Assembly (NCBI RefSeq): GCF_009931435.1
Contig: NZ_CP043414.1
Source: Escherichia coli
Lineage (GTDB): Bacteria; Pseudomonadota; Gammaproteobacteria; Enterobacterales; Enterobacteriaceae
Strand: one strand, 5' to 3'
Length of the DNA: 64,000 bases
Shown: in pieces, positions 4,088 through 13,375 of the stretch
Numbering within the stretch: position 1 is the first letter of the stretch
How the letters are laid out: every line of letters starts with the position of its first letter
Notes under the pieces: model-generated
Told to the model about the DNA's origin: nothing
Databases searched by the model: none
What the model saw: only the letters and a program-made list of their open reading frames with translations
Made by a program: the position numbers and the translations under genes

Positions 4088-5315
4088 ACATGTATTCCCG
4101 GTGAAAAAAGACAAAACCCCGCGCACCGGAAAGGTGGCGGGGGATTCACGGAGATAATATCTGTCTGAAATTGTTTTTAATCGATGGGATTGTTGCGTAT
4201 TAACATGAAGGAGATCAGGACTTATCCGTTACTGGGTGATCTCCTTCCATGAAAATACGCCGTTATTGTTAAACAGCAGGCTGATTTCTCCGTAAAGGGG
4301 AAAATATTTATCGGCTGCATGATTATCAGGTGTGTCTGTGTTTACTGCTGTGAGTATTTTTCAGTGTATTGTGGGGGAGATGTCAGTGGGAGATATTAAA
4401 TTTACATTTATAATTATCTTACTTCTTCTGTGTGTTTTTTATAAGAGTGCACACGTAATGATATCTGTTGATACCATGTGGTTAAGTGTTTCCCTTCCTG
4501 GTCATGCGTAATGATTAAATGCTTTTGTGACACCATTCTTCCGGTCTGAATATTTATCCCGTTCTTTTTTATTTGTGCAGTGATACTGTCGGAAGAGAAT
4601 TCAGTAATGTGAGGTGTCCTGGTCAGGATAATATCTGCTGAGATATTATTAGTTGAGTGTGTTTTTACTGAGCAAAAGCTGGCTTTTAATTCCTGTACTG
4701 AAACGCTGTTGCTCGTCCGGGGTTAACTGAAACTGGATGATGATGTAAAATGAAGGCTGTTTTTGTGTTTGTCGAAGAAGTGTTATTTTAATCCATTCTC
4801 ATCATTGGCTGGCGATTATACAGAAGTATTTGAAGAAAAAATGGTGCATTTTATCTGCGTCAGCAGGGAGGAAGTATTTTATTGATGTATCAGTATTAAA
4901 TGGTTTTTGTTATTTAGAAATATGTCATCCTGTCCATAGAATATTGTACTCAGCATTCAGTGCAGGAACTGTAGTCTTCTTTATTTTATTCTTCTTCAGG
5001 AGGGGGGATTCCTGAAGGCGTTATTCCCGGTGTTCTGTTTATGATTCATCCCGGCAGGAAACCGGTATCTGCAATACCCGGGATGATGCTTTTTGTTCGT
5101 ACGTGGTTGTGTAAAATTTGAATAGTGGATGTGCTCTGAAGGGAAGGAGGGGACACACAGATTCATTTTGTCTTTCTTCAGCAGCAAAACACACTGTGGT
5201 TATTATTTAACCATTAAATCAACAAAAATTTTTACCTCATATTGATTTGACTGCTATTTTTGCTATTAATAGCCAGAATTGCAGTACTTTTATATCTGTG
5301 TGTAGTGAGGTTACT

Positions 5316-6800
5316 ATGTCATTCGGTCAGCCTTGTGATGAGTTTCCCCTGAGTTCGCTGCCTCCACTCATTCGTGATGCCGTTATTGAAGCTCAGCAAA
5401 TTACGCAGGCTCCCCTTGGGCTTGTGGCAGCGTCTGCCCTGGGCGCTGTTTCACTTGTCTGCCAGAATCTGATTGATGTCTGCAGACTGAATACACTGCG
5501 GGGGCCGGTCTCTCTTTTTTTCCTGACGCTTGCCGAGTCCGGAGAACGAAAAATCGCAGTGGACAAATTATTAATGAAGCCCCTGTATCAGCAGGAGATG
5601 CAGTTATATTCCAGATACAAAAGTGAACTGGCTGTCTGGAAAAACAAGGAAGAGCTTTTAAAGGCTCAGAAAAAAGCATTGTTGTCAAAACTGAATAAAG
5701 AACTCCGCAAAGGAGCGGATGAGTCAGAAACCCTCAGACAACTGGAAGTACTTCAGAAAAACAGTGCGGAAGAACCTGTGAGGTATAAATTCATTTTTAA
5801 TGATGCCACGACTGCGGCAATTAAGAATCAGCTTTGTGGTAAATGGCGTTCAGTGGGTATTATGTCAGATGAAGCCGGTATTATATTTGATGGATATACC
5901 CTGTCTGAGTTGCCATTTATTAACAAAATGTGGGATGGCTCTGTATTGTCTGTGGACAGAAAGAATGAACCCGAACAGATGATTGAAAATGCCAGAATGA
6001 CGTTATCCCTCATGGTGCAACCCGGTCTTTTTGACCGATATATGGAGCGAAAAGGTTCTGTTGCCAGGGACAGTGGTTTTCTTGCCCGTTGTCTTATCAG
6101 TAAACCTGCAACCACGCAGGGGAAACGCTTTATTAACGGAGCTGTGATTCCGGGAGGATCATTAACGGCATTTCATGAACGATTAATGGAACTGGCCAGA
6201 GGCAGTATTGAAAAATCCAGTGAGGATGAACGGTATTGTCTGCATTTTTCGCCTGAAGCGCAAAAAATATTTATTGAGCACTATAATGTTCTGGAGCAGG
6301 ATTTATCTCCCTCCGGTCCGTTAAGTGCGTTTCGGGGACATGTTTCAAAAAAAACAGAAAACATTGCAAGAATTGCAGCGTTATTTCAGTATTTCAGCTA
6401 TGGTGAAGGGAAAATCTCTGCCGATATCATGACGTCTGCTGTCGTAATAAGTTCGTGGTACACAGATGAATATAAAAAATTATTTGCGTTACCTGATGAA
6501 TCTGAACTGCAGCAGAAGGACGCCGAGGAGCTGTTCGACTGGCTCATTGAGGAGTGCCGCGGAGAATGCCCACCCCGTGTCAGGAAAAATTATATTCTCC
6601 AGTGTGGCCCGGGTCGGTTCAGAAACAGGAAAAAACTGAACGCATTGCTGAACATTCTTGAATCTCAGTTCAGGCTTTCTGTCGTGCCGGAAGGAAAAAC
6701 CATGTATGTTCTGCTTCCCCAGATAGCCAGTTTAAAGTTGTCTGATGTCTCTGGTATTTTTACCTCGGGTTATCACTACAATAAGCTGAGAGCGAAGTAA
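5316..6800 (+). CDS. Large island protein, tentatively DUF3987 / YfjI-like (prophage replication-associated protein of unknown function)
   Basis: 494 aa from ATG 5316 preceded by GTGAGG Shine-Dalgarno; motifs recalled from the DUF3987 family (MSDEAG, GSVLSVDRK, LMVQPG, GFLARCL); no P-loop visible; family assignment from memory only. Confidence 0.55.
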   Translation: MSFGQPCDEFPLSSLPPLIRDAVIEAQQITQAPLGLVAASALGAVSLVCQNLIDVCRLNTLRGPVSLFFLTLAESGERKIAVDKLLMKPLYQQEMQLYSRYKSELAVWKNKEELLKAQKKALLSKLNKELRKGADESETLRQLEVLQKNSAEEPVRYKFIFNDATTAAIKNQLCGKWRSVGIMSDEAGIIFDGYTLSELPFINKMWDGSVLSVDRKNEPEQMIENARMTLSLMVQPGLFDRYMERKGSVARDSGFLARCLISKPATTQGKRFINGAVIPGGSLTAFHERLMELARGSIEKSSEDERYCLHFSPEAQKIFIEHYNVLEQDLSPSGPLSAFRGHVSKKTENIARIAALFQYFSYGEGKISADIMTSAVVISSWYTDEYKKLFALPDESELQQKDAEELFDWLIEECRGECPPRVRKNYILQCGPGRFRNRKKLNALLNILESQFRLSVVPEGKTMYVLLPQIASLKLSDVSGIFTSGYHYNKLRAK

Positions 6801-7730: not shown

Positions 7731-7810
7731 ATTCCTCACGGGAGATAACAGGCAGCAGAACGCCGCCGGCAGGCCGGAGACTGCGTCTGCTGCAGATGAA
7801 CGGTTAAGAA

Positions 7811-8017
7811 TTACGGACGGGACTGTGCAATACGCGCCTGCAGCCAGGCTTCCACTTCGCTTTTCAGCCATCGGGAGCTGCGGCCCATTTTGATGGGCGC
7901 AGGAAAGTCACCATCCTTGATGAGTTTGTAAAACCACTTATCGGTCAGGCCGGTCAGTTGAGTGATAAATGCCATGTCGACCATCTGGTCATCCATCAGT
8001 GAAACTGGGGTGATCAT
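7811..8017 (-). CDS. alpA: AlpA-family prophage transcriptional regulator (MerR-like HTH)
   Basis: MITPVSLMDDQMVDMAFITQLTGLTDKWFYKLIKDG...RWLKSEVEAWL pattern typical of the AlpA family; ATG 8017 preceded by GAGGAA. Confidence 0.75.
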   Translation of the reverse strand: MITPVSLMDDQMVDMAFITQLTGLTDKWFYKLIKDGDFPAPIKMGRSSRWLKSEVEAWLQARIAQSRP

Positions 8018-8563
8018 GAGAATGTTCCTCCGGATGTTGTTAAACCAGCCGGTGTGGTCATGAAAACAACGCACCACCTTCACCGGCATAACAACCGGGG
8101 AGAAACGTAAAAAATAATCGGGAATGTGACCGCCAGGAGATAAACGGGGAGGTTACGGTGGCTGAGCCGTACCGGTATGCCGGGTGGTTGTTACGAAACG
8201 ATGCTTCCGCACGCGCGCGCGATAAAGAAGGGATGATTTTCGTGAGGAAGAGGGGAAAACTGGCGTTCTGATAATTGCAGAGTTATTTACGGGGCGGTTA
8301 CGATGGGGCAGACCGTGTCCGGTGGGCAGGCGACAGGTATCACCGATGGGATAAGACTGTCTGATTGGTATTATAAATATATAAGAGAGATCAAACACAT
8401 GAGATCAAATACATGAGTTCATATATGTGAAATAAACACGGTGAGTGTGATCAGTGGGCATGATGAGAACGCAGTAGCAACAGACTGCGCTATCCCTGAT
8501 AGCTGGCGTATAACCTGCGTATATAAAACGTACCAGCAACGCACGTGAACAGAGTGCATTAAG

Positions 8564-8579
8564 CATCCGTCGTTGACAC
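8564..8579. repeat. 16 nt identical to the IS100 right terminal repeat (catccgtcgttgacac); solo IS21-family end remnant
   Basis: Exact match to 25513-25528 plus flanking c of the IS100 copy in this window. Confidence 0.5.
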
Positions 8580-9329
8580 CGACCTGGTGAGTGACAGTCT
8601 GAGAGACCGGTTAAGTGGTGGTACGGGAGTAATGAGTTTGGGGTGGGTACCAGAATGCCAGTCTGGCGGTATGCTGACAGTATCACGTTAATTGCAGCAT
8701 AAAGTGATGAGAGGCTAATGGAAGTTAAAACCAGAGCAGTTCCGTCGTTGTTCATCCCGGGAGACGCTGGAAAAAGTGATTTCCCACACGCGTTATAAGC
8801 TTACTCCAGCGGAGATGGAAGCCTTCAACTCTGCGGTCGATCACCGACTGGCAGAACTGACAATGAACAAGCTTTACGATCGTGTTCCCGCTTCAGTCTG
8901 GAAATATGTCATCTGAGCGTTCGGTAATCACAACTGCATCGCGCCAGGTGTTATCCGCTTTGTGATTCTTATTGGCTCTTCTCAGGTTATTAAAAGCTGA
9001 ATATGTTCCTGTTGTCGGGAACCAGGATAATACCGGGAGCGTTAAGCGGTATAGCGACAACAAAGAATTCGAAATCAAAAGGGAATGGTGCCGGAGGCGT
9101 GGGCGGTAATAGGCTGATTTTCAGGTATTACCGGCTTACAACGTGTGGTTGATATTGAGGGGCTGTGAGTTTCGCGTATTTGTCAGAAACCCAGATGAGT
9201 TTTCCTGTATGGGACGAAATAAGGCAGCGGCAATACCTGGAAAATTTAATATGGTATGAAGGAGAACCTGTCGGTTACGCTTAATATACACGGTACACTG
9301 TCAGCTCAGGGGATACATGAACCGTTATC

Positions 9330-9539
9330 TCACCAGCTACACAGTATACACACACTGACGCTGACAGTAGTCAGCAGGACCACAATAATCAGCGCCAGCA
9401 GTATGGTAACGATACGGTCTGTATTCCGGTAGTAGCCGAAGGGGTCGACAGAACCACAATACGGGCAACACACTGTATTATTAGTAATCGCGTTTCCACA
9501 GTCCCTGCACTTCTTTTGCGTATCACCATAACTCCCTCC
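9330..9539 (-). pseudogene. Small zinc-ribbon plus transmembrane-helix protein, apparently frameshifted
   Basis: ATG at 9529 with strong GAGGAGGGAG Shine-Dalgarno opens a 46-codon frame; the -1 frame encodes CRDCGNAITNNTVCCPYCGS followed by a hydrophobic helix (IVTILLALIIVVLLTTVSVSV) but lacks a start codon. Confidence 0.4.
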
Positions 9540-9727
9540 TCACAGCCTTACCCGTAACCGGTTTTTTACATTAAAAAACAACGCTGAAAATTCAACCGTC
9601 AGTCCGGAGACGACCGTTCGGGTTATCACAGAGTGCCTGAGACAGTGTCCTGCCGGAGGTCACTTCAGGGACTCTGCGCATTTTTTACGACGTGGCTATT
9701 CCGTATGAACCATACGGAGATTTAACC

Positions 9728-10297
9728 ATGACCTACAAATACAACCCCTTCTGGCAGCAACGTATTCGTGAGACGGTGCGGCACGCACTGAATGTTCATC
9801 CCCGCCTGACGGCATTGCGGGTTGACCTGCGTCTCCCGGATGTACCGGCAGCAACGGACGCAGCTGTGATATCCCGCTTCATCAATGCCCTGAAAGCCCG
9901 AATCGACGCTTACCAGAAACGTAAGCATCGGGAAGGTAAACGCGTGCATCCCACCACCCTGCATTACGTCTGGGCCCGGGAGTTTGGGGAGTTCAAAGGT
10001 AAAAAACACTATCACCTGATGCTGCTGGTCAACCGGGATACCTGGTGTCGTGCCGGTGATTACCGCGCTCCGGAGTCTCTGGCCGGGATGATTAAACAGG
10101 CGTGGTGCAGTGCCCTGGGAGTGGATGTCGGGTGCCATGCCACGCTGGTGCATTTTCCGGCCTGGCCGGCGGTGTGGCTGGCGCGTAATGATGACACCGG
10201 CTTTCAGCAGGTGCTGGAACGTGCTAACTATCTGGCGAAGGAGCATACCAAAGCTCACTGCACCGGTGAGCGCAACTTTGGCTGCAGTCGTGGCTGA
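9728..10297 (+). CDS. HUH-type rolling-circle Rep-like protein (YagK/YfjJ / inovirus gp2-like family)
   Basis: HUH motif KKHYHLML and YxxK motif (NYLAKE) near the C-terminus; ATG 9728 with GGAG Shine-Dalgarno embedded in an 8 bp palindrome (9700-9718). Confidence 0.65.
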   Translation: MTYKYNPFWQQRIRETVRHALNVHPRLTALRVDLRLPDVPAATDAAVISRFINALKARIDAYQKRKHREGKRVHPTTLHYVWAREFGEFKGKKHYHLMLLVNRDTWCRAGDYRAPESLAGMIKQAWCSALGVDVGCHATLVHFPAWPAVWLARNDDTGFQQVLERANYLAKEHTKAHCTGERNFGCSRG

Positions 10298-10462
10298 GCC
10301 AGACAGACGAGTTATCTGACTTCAGTGTGATGACGTGTTCACGGCCACCACACTGATTTTCCCTTATGAGACTGAACTGAAACCGCCATTCACACCTGAC
10401 CACGCTGCCCGTACCGGGACGGCTGTTGCCTGCGTGTCGTCTGACGGTAAGGAACATATACT

Positions 10463-10855
10463 ATGTACGCAAAATCCTTTCTCGCTCTTGATGGCAACGG
10501 ACGTCTGACGGGCGCCCGTACAGCACAGGCCGCACCTTATGCTCACTACACCTGCCACTTGTGTGGCAGTGCACTCAGATACCATCCGCAATACGACACT
10601 GAACTTCCCTGGTTTGAACACACTGACGACAGGCTGACAGAGCACGGTCAACAGTGCCCTTATGTCAGGCCGGAGCGCAGAGAAATACAGTTGATTAAAC
10701 GTCTGCAGCAATTCGTACCGGATGCCTTACCCGTGGTGCGTAAAGCCAGCTGGCACTGCAGACAATGTCACCACGATTATTATGGGGAGCGGTACTGCAC
10801 ACACTGCCAGACCGGAGGTTTCAGTCTTCCCCGGACAGCTCAGCAACTGTCTTGA
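10463..10855 (+). CDS. Uncharacterised zinc-ribbon protein (paralog 1), CxxC pairs and PWFEH motif
   Basis: 130 aa; CHLC ... PWFEH ... CRQC-x10-CTHC; AAGGAA Shine-Dalgarno upstream; paralogous to 12019..12423. Confidence 0.6.
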   Translation: MYAKSFLALDGNGRLTGARTAQAAPYAHYTCHLCGSALRYHPQYDTELPWFEHTDDRLTEHGQQCPYVRPERREIQLIKRLQQFVPDALPVVRKASWHCRQCHHDYYGERYCTHCQTGGFSLPRTAQQLS

Positions 10856-10864
10856 ACGTAAAAA

Positions 10865-11833
<969 letters not shown>

Positions 11834-12005
11834 GATTACCCATCCTTGCAAATGCGTTATGGCGTACTGACAACTGTTCGGGTTTCAGATGAGTGGCTCA
11901 GTGTATGCGCCATTCGCTGAGCTACGGGCTATGAACCCCTTGAGGGATCGGGCTGCATACACCTTGCCAAATCTAATCACAGTTATTTTAACCAATTGTC
12001 AAGAT
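11834..12005 (-). ncRNA. Candidate IS110-family bridge-RNA region (structured 5' non-coding arm); hypothesis only
   Basis: 8 bp stem (11901-11908 with 11955-11962) enclosing a smaller hairpin; TTGACA hexamer on the minus strand at 12002..11997; analogy to IS621-type elements. Confidence 0.25.
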
Positions 12006-12018
12006 ACAAGGAGGAGAT

Positions 12019-12423
12019 ATGCGAATTCTGAACTGCTATATGGCGAATGACAGCAAAGGCCATTTTGTTACGGCGAAAGAAGCCGCGAAGAACAACCGAC
12101 AGGACGTTTTGTGCTGTGTGTCCTGTGGTTGTCCGTTAACACTTAAGCGGGGCAATGACGGACAACCGCCGTGGTTTGAACATGACCAGATGACTGTTGC
12201 TGCGAAAATCCTGCTGCGATGCACCTGGCTTGACCCGGCAGAGAAAGAGGCCCGTCGTTTGCATCTGCAGGGCATGACGGTTCCGGATTATACGGTGAAG
12301 GTGAGAAAGTGGTTTTGTGTGATGTGTGACGAAGATTATGAGGGGGAAAAGTGCTGCCCGCGTTGTGGTACCGGGGTATACAGCAGGGATAGGGGGGCTG
12401 CAGGAGGGCAACTGGAAGGATAG
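12019..12423 (+). CDS. Uncharacterised zinc-ribbon protein (paralog 2)
   Basis: 134 aa; CCVSCGC ... PPWFEH ... CVMC-x9-CCPRC; strong AGGAGGA Shine-Dalgarno; same architecture as 10463..10855. Confidence 0.6.
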   Translation: MRILNCYMANDSKGHFVTAKEAAKNNRQDVLCCVSCGCPLTLKRGNDGQPPWFEHDQMTVAAKILLRCTWLDPAEKEARRLHLQGMTVPDYTVKVRKWFCVMCDEDYEGEKCCPRCGTGVYSRDRGAAGGQLEG

Positions 12424-12617
12424 GAACTGAGCGGTTCAGTCGCGGAAATCAGTTGCAGAGCTGTAATGATATCTCCGGGAGTGCTGCGTTGGTAGGGGCA
12501 TCCCGGGATAGAGAAATTTTAGCACTTTGCCCTGAATGATTGTAGACGTCCCGAGTACTCGTACCGGCCTGAGTTATTACAGTTAGATATTCGCTTTTTC
12601 TCCCGCATACTTCACAG

Positions 12618-12639
12618 CTGTCAACGACGGATGAAAAGT
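12618..12639. repeat. 22 nt identical to the IS100 right terminal repeat (tgtcaacgacggatgaaaagtg), opposite orientation to the 8564 copy
   Basis: Exact match to the reverse complement of 25507-25528; the following sequence is not IS100 interior. Confidence 0.55.
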
Positions 12640-12713
12640 GGTTCTTCCGCAACTTGGGTGGAAGAAAATGGATGAAACTTTCTGGTGAACAAAGATCTAA
12701 GCTGATTTAAGTT

Positions 12714-13375
12714 ATGGGCAACGCAATGCACTCTCTTAAGACACTTTTAAAGTTACCTTGCGGATGGCGATGCAGTCGACAAATTATTAGCTCTGACGGT
12801 ATAACCCTCCATCTCCACGGAAAACGCAAAACAGCACAATGTCCTGAATGCTTTAAGCGTAGCGACTCTGTTCATAGTTGTCGTCGGCGCCGGATACAGC
12901 ATCTACCCTGCTCAGGGCAGACGCTATGGCTTGTATTTTCCGTCCGCCACTGGTACTGCCGTAACCCGGCTTGTTCACGTAAAATTTTTGCCGAGTCGCT
13001 TGCTCCCTTCGCCAGTTCACACCAGCAGTCTTCACAGGCGTTACAAAATTAACAACGTCAACTGGGATTAATAGCTGGAGGTGAGGCTGGAAAACGGGCT
13101 GCAACGGCAGCGGGTCTCCGTTGCAGTGCTGATACTCTTCTTCGCAGGCTTATCAATACCCCGGAGACGAAACAGTCAGGCGCGCCTCATGTCGGTATTG
13201 ATGAGTGGGCGTGGCATTGGGGCCACCGTTACGGTACGTTAATATTCAATCTTGATACTCACCGCCCCCTGGTCCTGCTTCCCGGCCGTGATCAGCGTAC
13301 GCTGGCGACCTGGTTCAGAAAAGGTCCGGAAATACAGGTTGTATCGCGTGATCGCAGTGGAGTCTATGCGACAGC
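12714..13375 (+). pseudogene. ISL3-family transposase remnant (zf-ISL3 N-terminus, frameshifted, 3' end cut by IS600)
   Basis: N-terminal CPEC...HLPCSGQ...RHWYCRNPACSRKIFAESL pattern; downstream frames encode GIDEWAWHWGHRYGTLIFNL and VSRDRSGVYATAE in shifted frames. Confidence 0.6.

Follow-up and report, generated by a model that had tools for sequence, protein, structure and literature searches.

The closest described relatives of the gene considered here are yfjJ and yagK of Escherichia coli K-12, carried by the CP4-57 and CP4-6 islands on a P4-like backbone with alpA and yfjI. In CP4-57 the order is intA-yfjH-alpA-yfjI-yfjJ, with yfjI adjoining yfjJ. We analysed a 64,000-nucleotide stretch of E. 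coli DNA (contig NZ_CP043414.1 of RefSeq assembly GCF_009931435.1; hereafter the window), which holds a gene of the same family on a backbone of the same kind, preceded by a short palindrome. Its 189-aa product is 35% identical to K-12 YfjJ and shares with it the HYH motif, the YxxK motif and the C-terminal RNFGCSRG tail. Unlike K-12 yfjJ, which comes after alpA and yfjI and has no leader hairpin, the window gene is the first of its own transcription unit, is followed by zinc-ribbon genes and has a hairpin predicted to sequester its Shine-Dalgarno sequence. The gene and the family were already known; our analysis adds support for a complete HUH active site, the operon context and a conserved leader element. 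As a whole, the locus is best explained, with a probability that we place somewhat above even, by an island-borne single-domain nuclease of the Rep class of HUH enzymes, together with a leader stem-loop that would occlude the Shine-Dalgarno sequence.

Two further groups of known systems bear on this explanation. In the plasmid replication-initiator genes repA (IncFII) and repZ (IncI and IncB), leader structures sequester the ribosome-binding site. The window gene resembles them as an initiator-type gene with its Shine-Dalgarno sequence and start codon in a leader stem-loop, and differs from them in that its leader showed neither an antisense RNA nor a pseudoknot partner nor a consistent leader peptide. 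The Y1 transposases of the IS200/IS605 family and TnpA-REP belong to the HUH enzymes that recognise a hairpin in DNA and cleave next to a TTAC-type motif. Unlike IS200/IS605 elements, the window gene is accompanied by one hairpin per locus, has no element ends, and is a fixed backbone gene of large islands rather than a multicopy insertion sequence (IS).

The open reading frame (ORF) runs on the plus strand from an ATG at 9728-9730 to a TGA at 10295-10297. It is 100% identical to the RefSeq coding sequence WP_000221556.1, named 'inovirus Gp2 family protein', and PGAP called the same coding sequence in an identical E. coli record. A previous sequence-only reading of this DNA had set the feature at 9700-10297; both the ORF and the palindrome that it combined are real, 9700 being the start of the palindrome and not of the ORF. 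An N-terminal extension from a GTG at 9692 (201 aa) is ruled out, the frame being broken by a 5-nt indel in other E. coli copies. The comparison with YagK/YfjJ which that reading proposed was positive: Pfam family PF11726 (YagK_YfjJ_C) matches residues 21-187 with E = 7.7e-48 and 163.1 bits against a cut-off of 25.8, all profile positions (1-170 of 170) are covered, and the RefSeq annotation agrees. The window gene is thus an already annotated and catalogued member of the YagK/YfjJ family. As had been proposed, the Pfam scan found no helicase or second domain above threshold, PF11726 standing alone. An exhaustive profile search gave 901 family clusters at 50% identity, nearly all of 190-240 aa, so that the single-domain state is the family norm. 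The description of the gene as 'stand-alone' is therefore apt for its domain content and not for its surroundings, since it lies in a conserved module with zinc ribbons, with alpA in other genera and with a YfjI/DUF3987 gene nearby. Ratios of dN/dS between 0.14 and 0.39, measured against E. coli paralogues and members from other genera, indicate that the window gene is maintained by purifying selection. Searches of NCBIfam and PADLOC matched neither the protein nor its neighbours, AlpA excepted, PHROGs places the protein in an unannotated family, and searches of PDB sequences with two family profiles returned chance matches only.

The HUH motif (HYH, residues 94-96) and the YxxK motif (YLAK, residues 168-171) that the sequence-only reading had pointed out are read directly from the translation. 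Among 129 representatives mutually under 50% identical, E85 and H94 are present in all 129, H96 in 128, and Y168 and K171 in 127 each, so that the proposed catalytic residues align in 127-129 of the 129; residue 95, between the two histidines, is Y or F. In an alignment of 81 members that are 34-48% identical to the window protein, the columns of E85, H94, H96, W126, Y168 and K171 are all invariant. An AlphaFold model of the protein (pLDDT 78, pTM 0.79) pairs strand 79-89, which bears E85, with strand 92-102, which bears the HUH motif, as a beta-hairpin, and places Y168 in a predicted helix (156-170) that is C-terminal to HUH. This succession, HUH before Tyr, is the order of Rep proteins; MOB relaxases are permuted, their Tyr being N-terminal to HUH. 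The structural neighbours of the model are Rep nuclease domains: SIRV1 ORF119 (PDB 2x3g; score 8.3), parvovirus NS1 (7.6, 7.2 and 7.1), Helraiser (6.6), AAV5 Rep (6.4), RepB (5.8) and TnpA-REP (5.8). Sequence identity to SIRV1 ORF119, NS1 and AAV Rep is only 9-12%. A Foldseek search of viral models in BFVD gave a majority of unnamed top matches, and the named ones are microvirus replication initiators. No relaxase family appears among the Pfam matches of the 81 members, which still leaves room for a Rep-type enzyme acting as a relaxase, and neither the window protein nor the 81 members match a Pfam Y1 transposase.

Family profile, near-invariant residues, predicted fold and structural neighbours thus all bear out the earlier suggestion of a Rep-type HUH protein. 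The model, with HUH on a strand, Tyr on a helix and a Rep/HUH fold, supports assignment of the 189-aa protein to the Rep class of the HUH superfamily. E85, H94 and H96 as metal ligands, with Y168-x-x-K171, make a candidate complete Rep-class catalytic set. The putative activity would be metal-dependent cleavage of single-stranded DNA with a covalent 5'-phosphotyrosine intermediate.

Compared with the initiators of single-stranded DNA phages (PF23343; microvirus VP4-type), the window protein shows the same arrangement of HUH followed by YxxK and a weak, consistent profile similarity. Its own match to PF23343 (REP_ORF2-G2P), at 26.4 bits, is under the cut-off of 27.8, so that the link to inovirus gp2 suggested by the sequence-only reading survives as a distant superfamily relationship and not as family membership. 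Across the 81 diverse members, 78 match PF23343 at E <= 0.01 (best 5.4e-10), with stray matches to Rep_1, RepSA and Helitron_like_N. Kinship with the replication proteins of inoviruses and microviruses is accordingly real at the superfamily level only. Unlike these initiators, the window family is encoded in integrative islands of double-stranded DNA and in large plasmids, and the window protein is shorter than most of the viral matches (most of 250-530 aa, a few of 177-190 aa). Translated searches (tblastn) of 50,697 phage records gave a single match, an unverified low-coverage contig of 4.5 kb and of chromosomal type, and the 2.9 million contigs of IMG/VR hold two family loci, both of E. coli type. 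This near-absence rules out a phage origin of the gene and reduces the name 'inovirus Gp2' to a distant superfamily link. Unlike parvovirus NS1 and AAV Rep, which carry a fused superfamily 3 (SF3) helicase, the window protein would need a helicase in trans.

The palindrome in front of the gene is exact, as had been reported: its arms are of 8 bp, and the 3' arm takes in three bases of the four-base GGAG Shine-Dalgarno sequence (Table 1). Palindromes with perfect 8-bp arms and loops of 3-8 nt are frequent here, with 34 in the window (about 20 distinct sites) against 6.6 +/- 3.0 expected from Markov simulations. One such palindrome is therefore unremarkable by itself, and the case for function comes from homologues that hold a hairpin in the same place. 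Folded as RNA, the stem 9691-9730 reaches -15.2 kcal/mol (z = -4.2), and none of 200 shuffled sequences was as stable; the fold of a 58-nt stretch has z = -2.85 in the window and z = -5.73 in another E. coli copy (L044). The predicted stable stem pairs both the Shine-Dalgarno sequence and the AUG, as in a hairpin that sequesters the ribosome-binding site. Other E. coli copies have identical arms and an 8-nt loop, AACGAAAC, from which the window allele, found also in strain DC71, differs by a 5-nt loop deletion. No Rfam family matched at E <= 1 in positions 7800-12800 of the window, and none reached the gathering threshold in eight related loci, RNAs associated with insertion sequences excepted; neither the leader nor the long gaps upstream gave a match.

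The hairpin also contains an AUG, at the end of the 5' arm in the window and in the loop in most lineages; here it opens a 6-codon mini-ORF (MNHTEI, 9705-9725) with its stop 2 nt before the main AUG. Most lineages have an (A/G)TG at -27 to -30, and the resulting mini-ORFs are 1-9 codons long or, in L044, L061 and L074, run across the main start with 12-23 codons, while one type is an in-frame extension of 10 codons. A leader peptide as a general feature is ruled out by these inconsistent lengths and by the lack of a Shine-Dalgarno sequence for any of the mini-ORFs.

Among orthologues of 60-69% identity, which come from at least 12 named genera, non-coding conservation is confined to the last ~55 nt before the ATG. 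The conserved leader reads (A)AGT(A)TTTTTTTAC, followed by a stem-loop in two tiers, with ACCGGAG as the outer 3' arm. Conservation across genera begins exactly at the T-run of the leader, which suggests that the leader marks a boundary between core and cargo. Across 18 orthologue leaders, 92% of the outer helix is paired; outside one fixed column, departures from canonical pairing comprise seven G.U cells against two non-pairs, and one GC-to-AU double change is found, in Rosenbergiella and Tatumella. Members at 37-47% protein identity, from more than ten further lineages (Photorhabdus, Alcaligenes, Enterobacter, Citrobacter, Budvicia, Lelliottia, Xenorhabdus, an IncI plasmid and two metagenomic contigs among them), have stems of unrelated sequence in the same place, again with the Shine-Dalgarno sequence in the 3' arm; CATTACCTATG/CATAGGTAATG and GGCTCTCATG/CATGAGAGCC are examples. 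This location of the Shine-Dalgarno sequence holds in all hairpin-bearing homologues, its region being 58-92% paired, and 12 of the 32 non-redundant leaders fold with z < -2.

The hairpin goes with the gene order in which the Gp2-type gene is followed by alpA, being found in 13 of 16 such loci against 1 of 12 others, in lineages that are not fully independent (Fisher p = 3e-4, Mann-Whitney p = 1e-4). With a covariance model the leader was located once per locus, always at the start codon, and no second site turned up in 51 sources. When built from the other genera, the model aligns the E. coli stem to their inner stem: the original outer arm with the Shine-Dalgarno sequence has been deleted in E. 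coli, and the new Shine-Dalgarno sequence is once more inside a stem. Comparison of the sequences thus gives good support to the view that the leader structure has been selected to hold the ribosome-binding site. This widespread leader element, which is not in Rfam and whose structure appears to be conserved, is one contribution of our analysis.

Just 5' of the hairpin lies the octamer TTTTTTAC, with TTAC-like motifs in distant lineages; it is present in four copies in 8107-10006 and in 11 in the window against 3.25 expected, one of them within the gene, in the codons for the conserved GKK that precedes HYH. It might belong to a promoter or transcription-start region, mark the core/cargo boundary or act as a nick motif. 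The TTAC and TATG motifs stand 14-15 nt apart, a spacing that rules them out as a sigma-70 promoter, and the sole sigma-70-like site detected by the promoter scan is at 9361-9389, outside the leader. Directly upstream of the leader, a strong hairpin followed by a T-run (9629-9686) looks like an intrinsic terminator or attenuator; the whole segment 9620-9735 folds with -43.9 kcal/mol (z = -4.4). The hairpin at 9629-9686 is present in other E. coli copies and has no similarity in other genera, and the E. coli upstream region gave no blastn match to those genera. A second palindrome with a short loop, GTTTTTTA-cat-TAAAAAAC, is found about 150 nt upstream of the first, at 9561-9579. Other inverted repeats in 8090-9730 are short and not conserved, and the same interval has no iterons or convincing direct repeats. 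A scan of hairpin-less loci for TTAC, hairpin and TATG in succession was set aside as not robust, missing true positives; its hit after K-12 yfjJ looks like an ordinary terminator.

Table 1. Positions of the leader elements, the gene, its candidate active-site codons and neighbouring genes in the window.
Feature	Position	Strand	Basis or remark
YfjI-family DUF3987 protein, possible helicase partner, 2.9 kb upstream	5247-6800	+	PF13148 5.4e-94; phrog_2373 ('DNA helicase') 2.4e-81
AlpA-family helix-turn-helix gene	7811-8089 (PGAP start 8017)	-	PF05930 E = 1.8e-8; PGAP annotation
Strong hairpin (9629-9676), then CGCA and TTTTTT, terminator-like	9629-9686	+	Directly upstream of the leader
TTTTTTAC motif just 5' of the hairpin, where cross-genus conservation begins	9681-9688	+	18 orthologue leaders; TTAC-like motif in distant lineages
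Predicted extended RNA leader hairpin	9691-9730	+	Pairs Shine-Dalgarno (9716-9719) and AUG (9728-9730) with 9691-9707
Exact palindrome TCCGTATG (9700-9707)-AAC-CATACGGA (9711-9718), core of the leader hairpin	9700-9718	+	Direct reading
Shine-Dalgarno GGAG, 8 nt before ATG	9716-9719	+	9716-9718 in 3' arm; G9719 wobble-pairs U9699
Coding sequence, YagK/YfjJ-family single-domain protein, Rep-class HUH endonuclease candidate	9728-10297	+	ORF; PF11726; WP_000221556.1; dN/dS
E85 codon, candidate third metal ligand	9980-9982	+	129/129 representatives; 81/81 aligned members
HUH motif codons H94-Y95-H96 (CAC TAT CAC)	10007-10015	+	Direct reading; conservation
Y168-L-A-K171 codons (YxxK, Rep motif III), putative catalytic tyrosine	10229-10240	+	Direct reading; conservation
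DUF7828 + Zn_ribbon_11 protein, 130 aa, first downstream module member	10463-10855	+	Pfam 4.4e-31 and 3.2e-9
Second, paralogous DUF7828 + Zn_ribbon_11 protein, 134 aa	12019-12423	+	Pfam 2.3e-30 and 8.1e-18

The genes upstream of the Gp2-type gene (+) are, in order, YfjI/DUF3987 (+), a hypothetical gene (-), the AlpA-like gene (-) and a truncated Hha-like ORF (+); a DUF7828 zinc-ribbon gene (+), an IS110-family insertion, a second zinc-ribbon gene (+), IS debris and cobU follow downstream. The truncated ORF, of the Hha/YmoA family, has 46 aa (8776-8916, +), and the island of L044 has a full hha (70 aa) in this place. The IS110-family element (10865-11851, -), a RefSeq pseudogene with an internal stop, parts the two zinc-ribbon paralogues, which are adjacent or overlapping in other E. 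coli islands (L044 and L045). DUF7828 shows a faint match to the N-terminal domain of CoiA.

In many Enterobacterales the order Gp2-type gene, alpA, DUF7828 zinc ribbon (one or two) recurs, alpA being directly downstream of the Gp2-type gene; the DUF7828/Zn_ribbon_11 gene comes after the Gp2-type gene, and after alpA where present, in E. coli and in other genera alike. E. coli lacks the alpA that follows elsewhere and has instead a 165-nt spacer (10298-10462), with a terminator-like inverted repeat at 10322-10356 (11-nt arms, 91% complementary, then TTTTCCC). On the minus strand at 8015-8122, upstream of the AlpA-like gene, we noticed TTTTTTAC, CCGG...TATG...CCGG and, around the Shine-Dalgarno sequence of that gene, CACCGG...CCGGAGG. 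This segment resembles the Gp2 leader of other genera, with low covariance-model scores (8.0 and 7.5 bits), and the resemblance may be due to chance or be a relic of an inverted Gp2-alpA operon.

In other genera the module is often continued by a second, very divergent YagK/YfjJ paralogue and DUF2913. The second paralogues at L060:10151-10717 and L045:16765-17331 have lost both HUH and Tyr-x-x-Lys, which suggests a non-catalytic partner or decoy. A gene-free gap of 0.5-2.2 kb precedes the Gp2-type gene in all loci of the other genera. Variable cargo lies on both sides of the module (loci L003, L048, L050, L056, L058 and L067): AAA_15/OLD-TOPRIM with UvrD (Gabija-like), a methyltransferase with ResIII, TIR, GmrSD and toxin-antitoxin pairs. 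A YfjI homologue is within the examined stretch in L015, L016, L020, L021 (adjacent) and L061. No canonical MOB-type relaxase is annotated in the island stretches examined (the window-type island, L044, L045 and K-12 CP4-57).

A match to the gene region is present in 3969 of 5426 complete E. coli genomes (~73%), with a median of two copies, and positions 9400-10900 of the window are 100% identical in many E. coli strains. In strain CFSAN061769 the gene lies within a CP4-44-type chromosomal island, with Ag43/YeeP on one side and cobU on the other. Relatives occur on 68 plasmid records, mostly large plasmids with pieces of the same island backbone. The small Psychrobacter plasmid pA46P3 (4696 bp; L046:1768-2592) encodes a 274-aa Gp2-type protein with HYH and YLAK intact; it is typed as non-mobilisable and replicates with RepM, and the Gp2-type gene occupies the usual slot of the mobilisation gene in small plasmids.

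The explanation that we favour can be put as a mechanism. The protein would nick single-stranded or hairpin DNA, in a metal-dependent and site-specific manner, and stay attached through Y168. Nicking might serve the replication or the conjugative mobilisation of the excised island, which is the most economical role that we can infer from the module context, the CP4-57 gene order and the lack of an annotated relaxase. A helicase could be supplied in trans by the YfjI/DUF3987 protein of the island or by a host enzyme, replacing the helicase domain of viral Reps. In the mRNA, the stem-loop would pair the Shine-Dalgarno sequence and the AUG with an upstream anti-Shine-Dalgarno arm and keep translation of the nuclease low until the leader structure is opened. 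In other genera the same restraint would extend to the co-transcribed excision activator AlpA. The sequence-only reading had left the palindrome as either an operator or a translation-occluding hairpin: a regulatory role is reasonable and the palindrome is conserved, and the data lean to the hairpin without settling the choice. Translational occlusion by an RNA hairpin seems to us a little better than an even bet and a role at the DNA level distinctly less probable, the two not being mutually exclusive.

Several observations weigh against this explanation. Covariation in the 18 close orthologues does not stand out significantly from shuffles (37/500 and 72/500), which we attribute to sequences that are too similar. 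The hairpin is missing from K-12 yfjJ and from other members that come later in their operon, and transcription of the 5' arm is assumed. Several stems are perfect palindromes, and the TATG loop motif and the TTAC motif are conserved in sequence, features as compatible with a DNA site recognised by a protein as with an RNA hairpin. No origin was found, whether as iterons, direct repeats or a second site, in keeping with the earlier statement that none was obvious. The island copy in the window appears to be without its integrase end, and IS elements lie between the module and cobU, so that the island is perhaps immobile here. The linkage to the YfjI helicase is inconsistent in other genera. 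In the literature, full-text searches for YagK/YfjJ returned annotation mentions and no biochemical or genetic study, and searches extended to CP4-57, HUH, DUF3987, AlpA and relaxases brought up no functional study of the family; a PIME preprint (10.64898/2026.01.12.698999) and a paper on SEN1998 of ROD21 (PMC8844411) concern other modules.

The alternative with the most in its favour, which we regard as possible and clearly less probable than occlusion, is that the inverted repeat acts as DNA, either as an operator for a dimeric regulator (the HUH protein, AlpA or a divergently encoded repressor), or as a recognition hairpin of the HUH protein with its nick site, combining a replication or transfer origin (ori/oriT) with autoregulation. 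In many Rep replicons, such as those of CRESS viruses and pMV158, the origin lies directly upstream of the Rep gene, and the element here is directly upstream of the nuclease gene, after the gene-free gap seen at all loci. Perfect palindromes of 8-11 bp occur in several lineages (the window, L018 and L022) and TTTTTTAC is locally enriched. The stems vary while TTAC or TTTTTTAC 5' of the stem and TATG at the junction of 5' arm and loop (-27 to -30) are fixed, a pattern expected of a nick motif with a co-evolving recognition hairpin. However, a pure origin would need neither a Shine-Dalgarno sequence that is always in the 3' arm nor a position that always abuts the start codon, and the single copy per locus does not speak for one either. 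Mismatches in the outer helix are mostly sense-strand G.U wobbles, which favours RNA pairing over a symmetric duplex site. Moreover, catalytically intact members such as K-12 YfjJ are encoded without the hairpin, and in the window allele the loop is reduced to 3 nt with TATG buried in the stem. That the palindrome is a chance feature without function is very improbable: the abundance of such palindromes in the window and the non-significant covariation among close orthologues would allow it, but its position is kept with different sequences in more than ten lineages, it is associated with operon order (p = 3e-4), and a stem has been re-created around the new Shine-Dalgarno sequence after the E. 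coli deletion.

A different objection concerns the protein itself, which might be no mobility enzyme of the island but a domesticated HUH nuclease or DNA-binding protein with a cargo-type role, for example in interference with incoming single-stranded DNA phages or rolling-circle plasmids or in regulating island transcription. Several findings speak for such a role: the defence cargo on both sides of the module in other genera; the second paralogue of related islands, which has neither HUH nor Tyr and suggests that the fold also has functions other than catalysis; the purifying selection that maintains the gene in E. coli even where its island seems immobile; and the Psychrobacter plasmid that replicates by RepM yet carries a Gp2-type gene. 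Nevertheless, no PADLOC defence model matched, the gene is part of the conserved backbone, next to alpA and the integrase module, rather than of the variable cargo, and its catalytic residues are kept as in bona fide Reps. We therefore consider a cargo role unlikely, and retain the Rep-class nuclease behind a Shine-Dalgarno-occluding stem-loop as the preferred explanation.

The novelty of the gene is low, since it is a catalogued member of the very common YagK/YfjJ family, and with conventional regulation proposed for a catalogued gene the discovery is a modest one. Its interest lies in what it may say about a widespread group: YfjJ and YagK are uncharacterised 'y-genes' of K-12, and about three in four complete E. 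coli genomes hold relatives of the window gene. The host islands carry Ag43 and toxin-antitoxin pairs, with defence hot spots in other genera; in one large clade the gene heads an alpA operon behind a conserved hairpin predicted to sequester the Shine-Dalgarno sequence. A stand-alone HUH enzyme of 189 aa with a defined nick site would also serve as an orthogonal 'HUH-tag' for covalent coupling of protein and DNA. It is tempting to go further and to see in YagK/YfjJ the missing replication initiator or Rep-type relaxase of CP4-like islands, with the TTAC-hairpin-TATG element as both ori/oriT and expression switch, in most genera also of alpA; this extension is speculative and we think it rather improbable. 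If it were true, an HUH system that has so far gone unrecognised would make islands carried by most E. coli genomes mobilisable or replicative. In place of a vague annotation as 'inovirus Gp2 family', our analysis offers testable hypotheses on how these islands may replicate or move and on how their excision module may be silenced.

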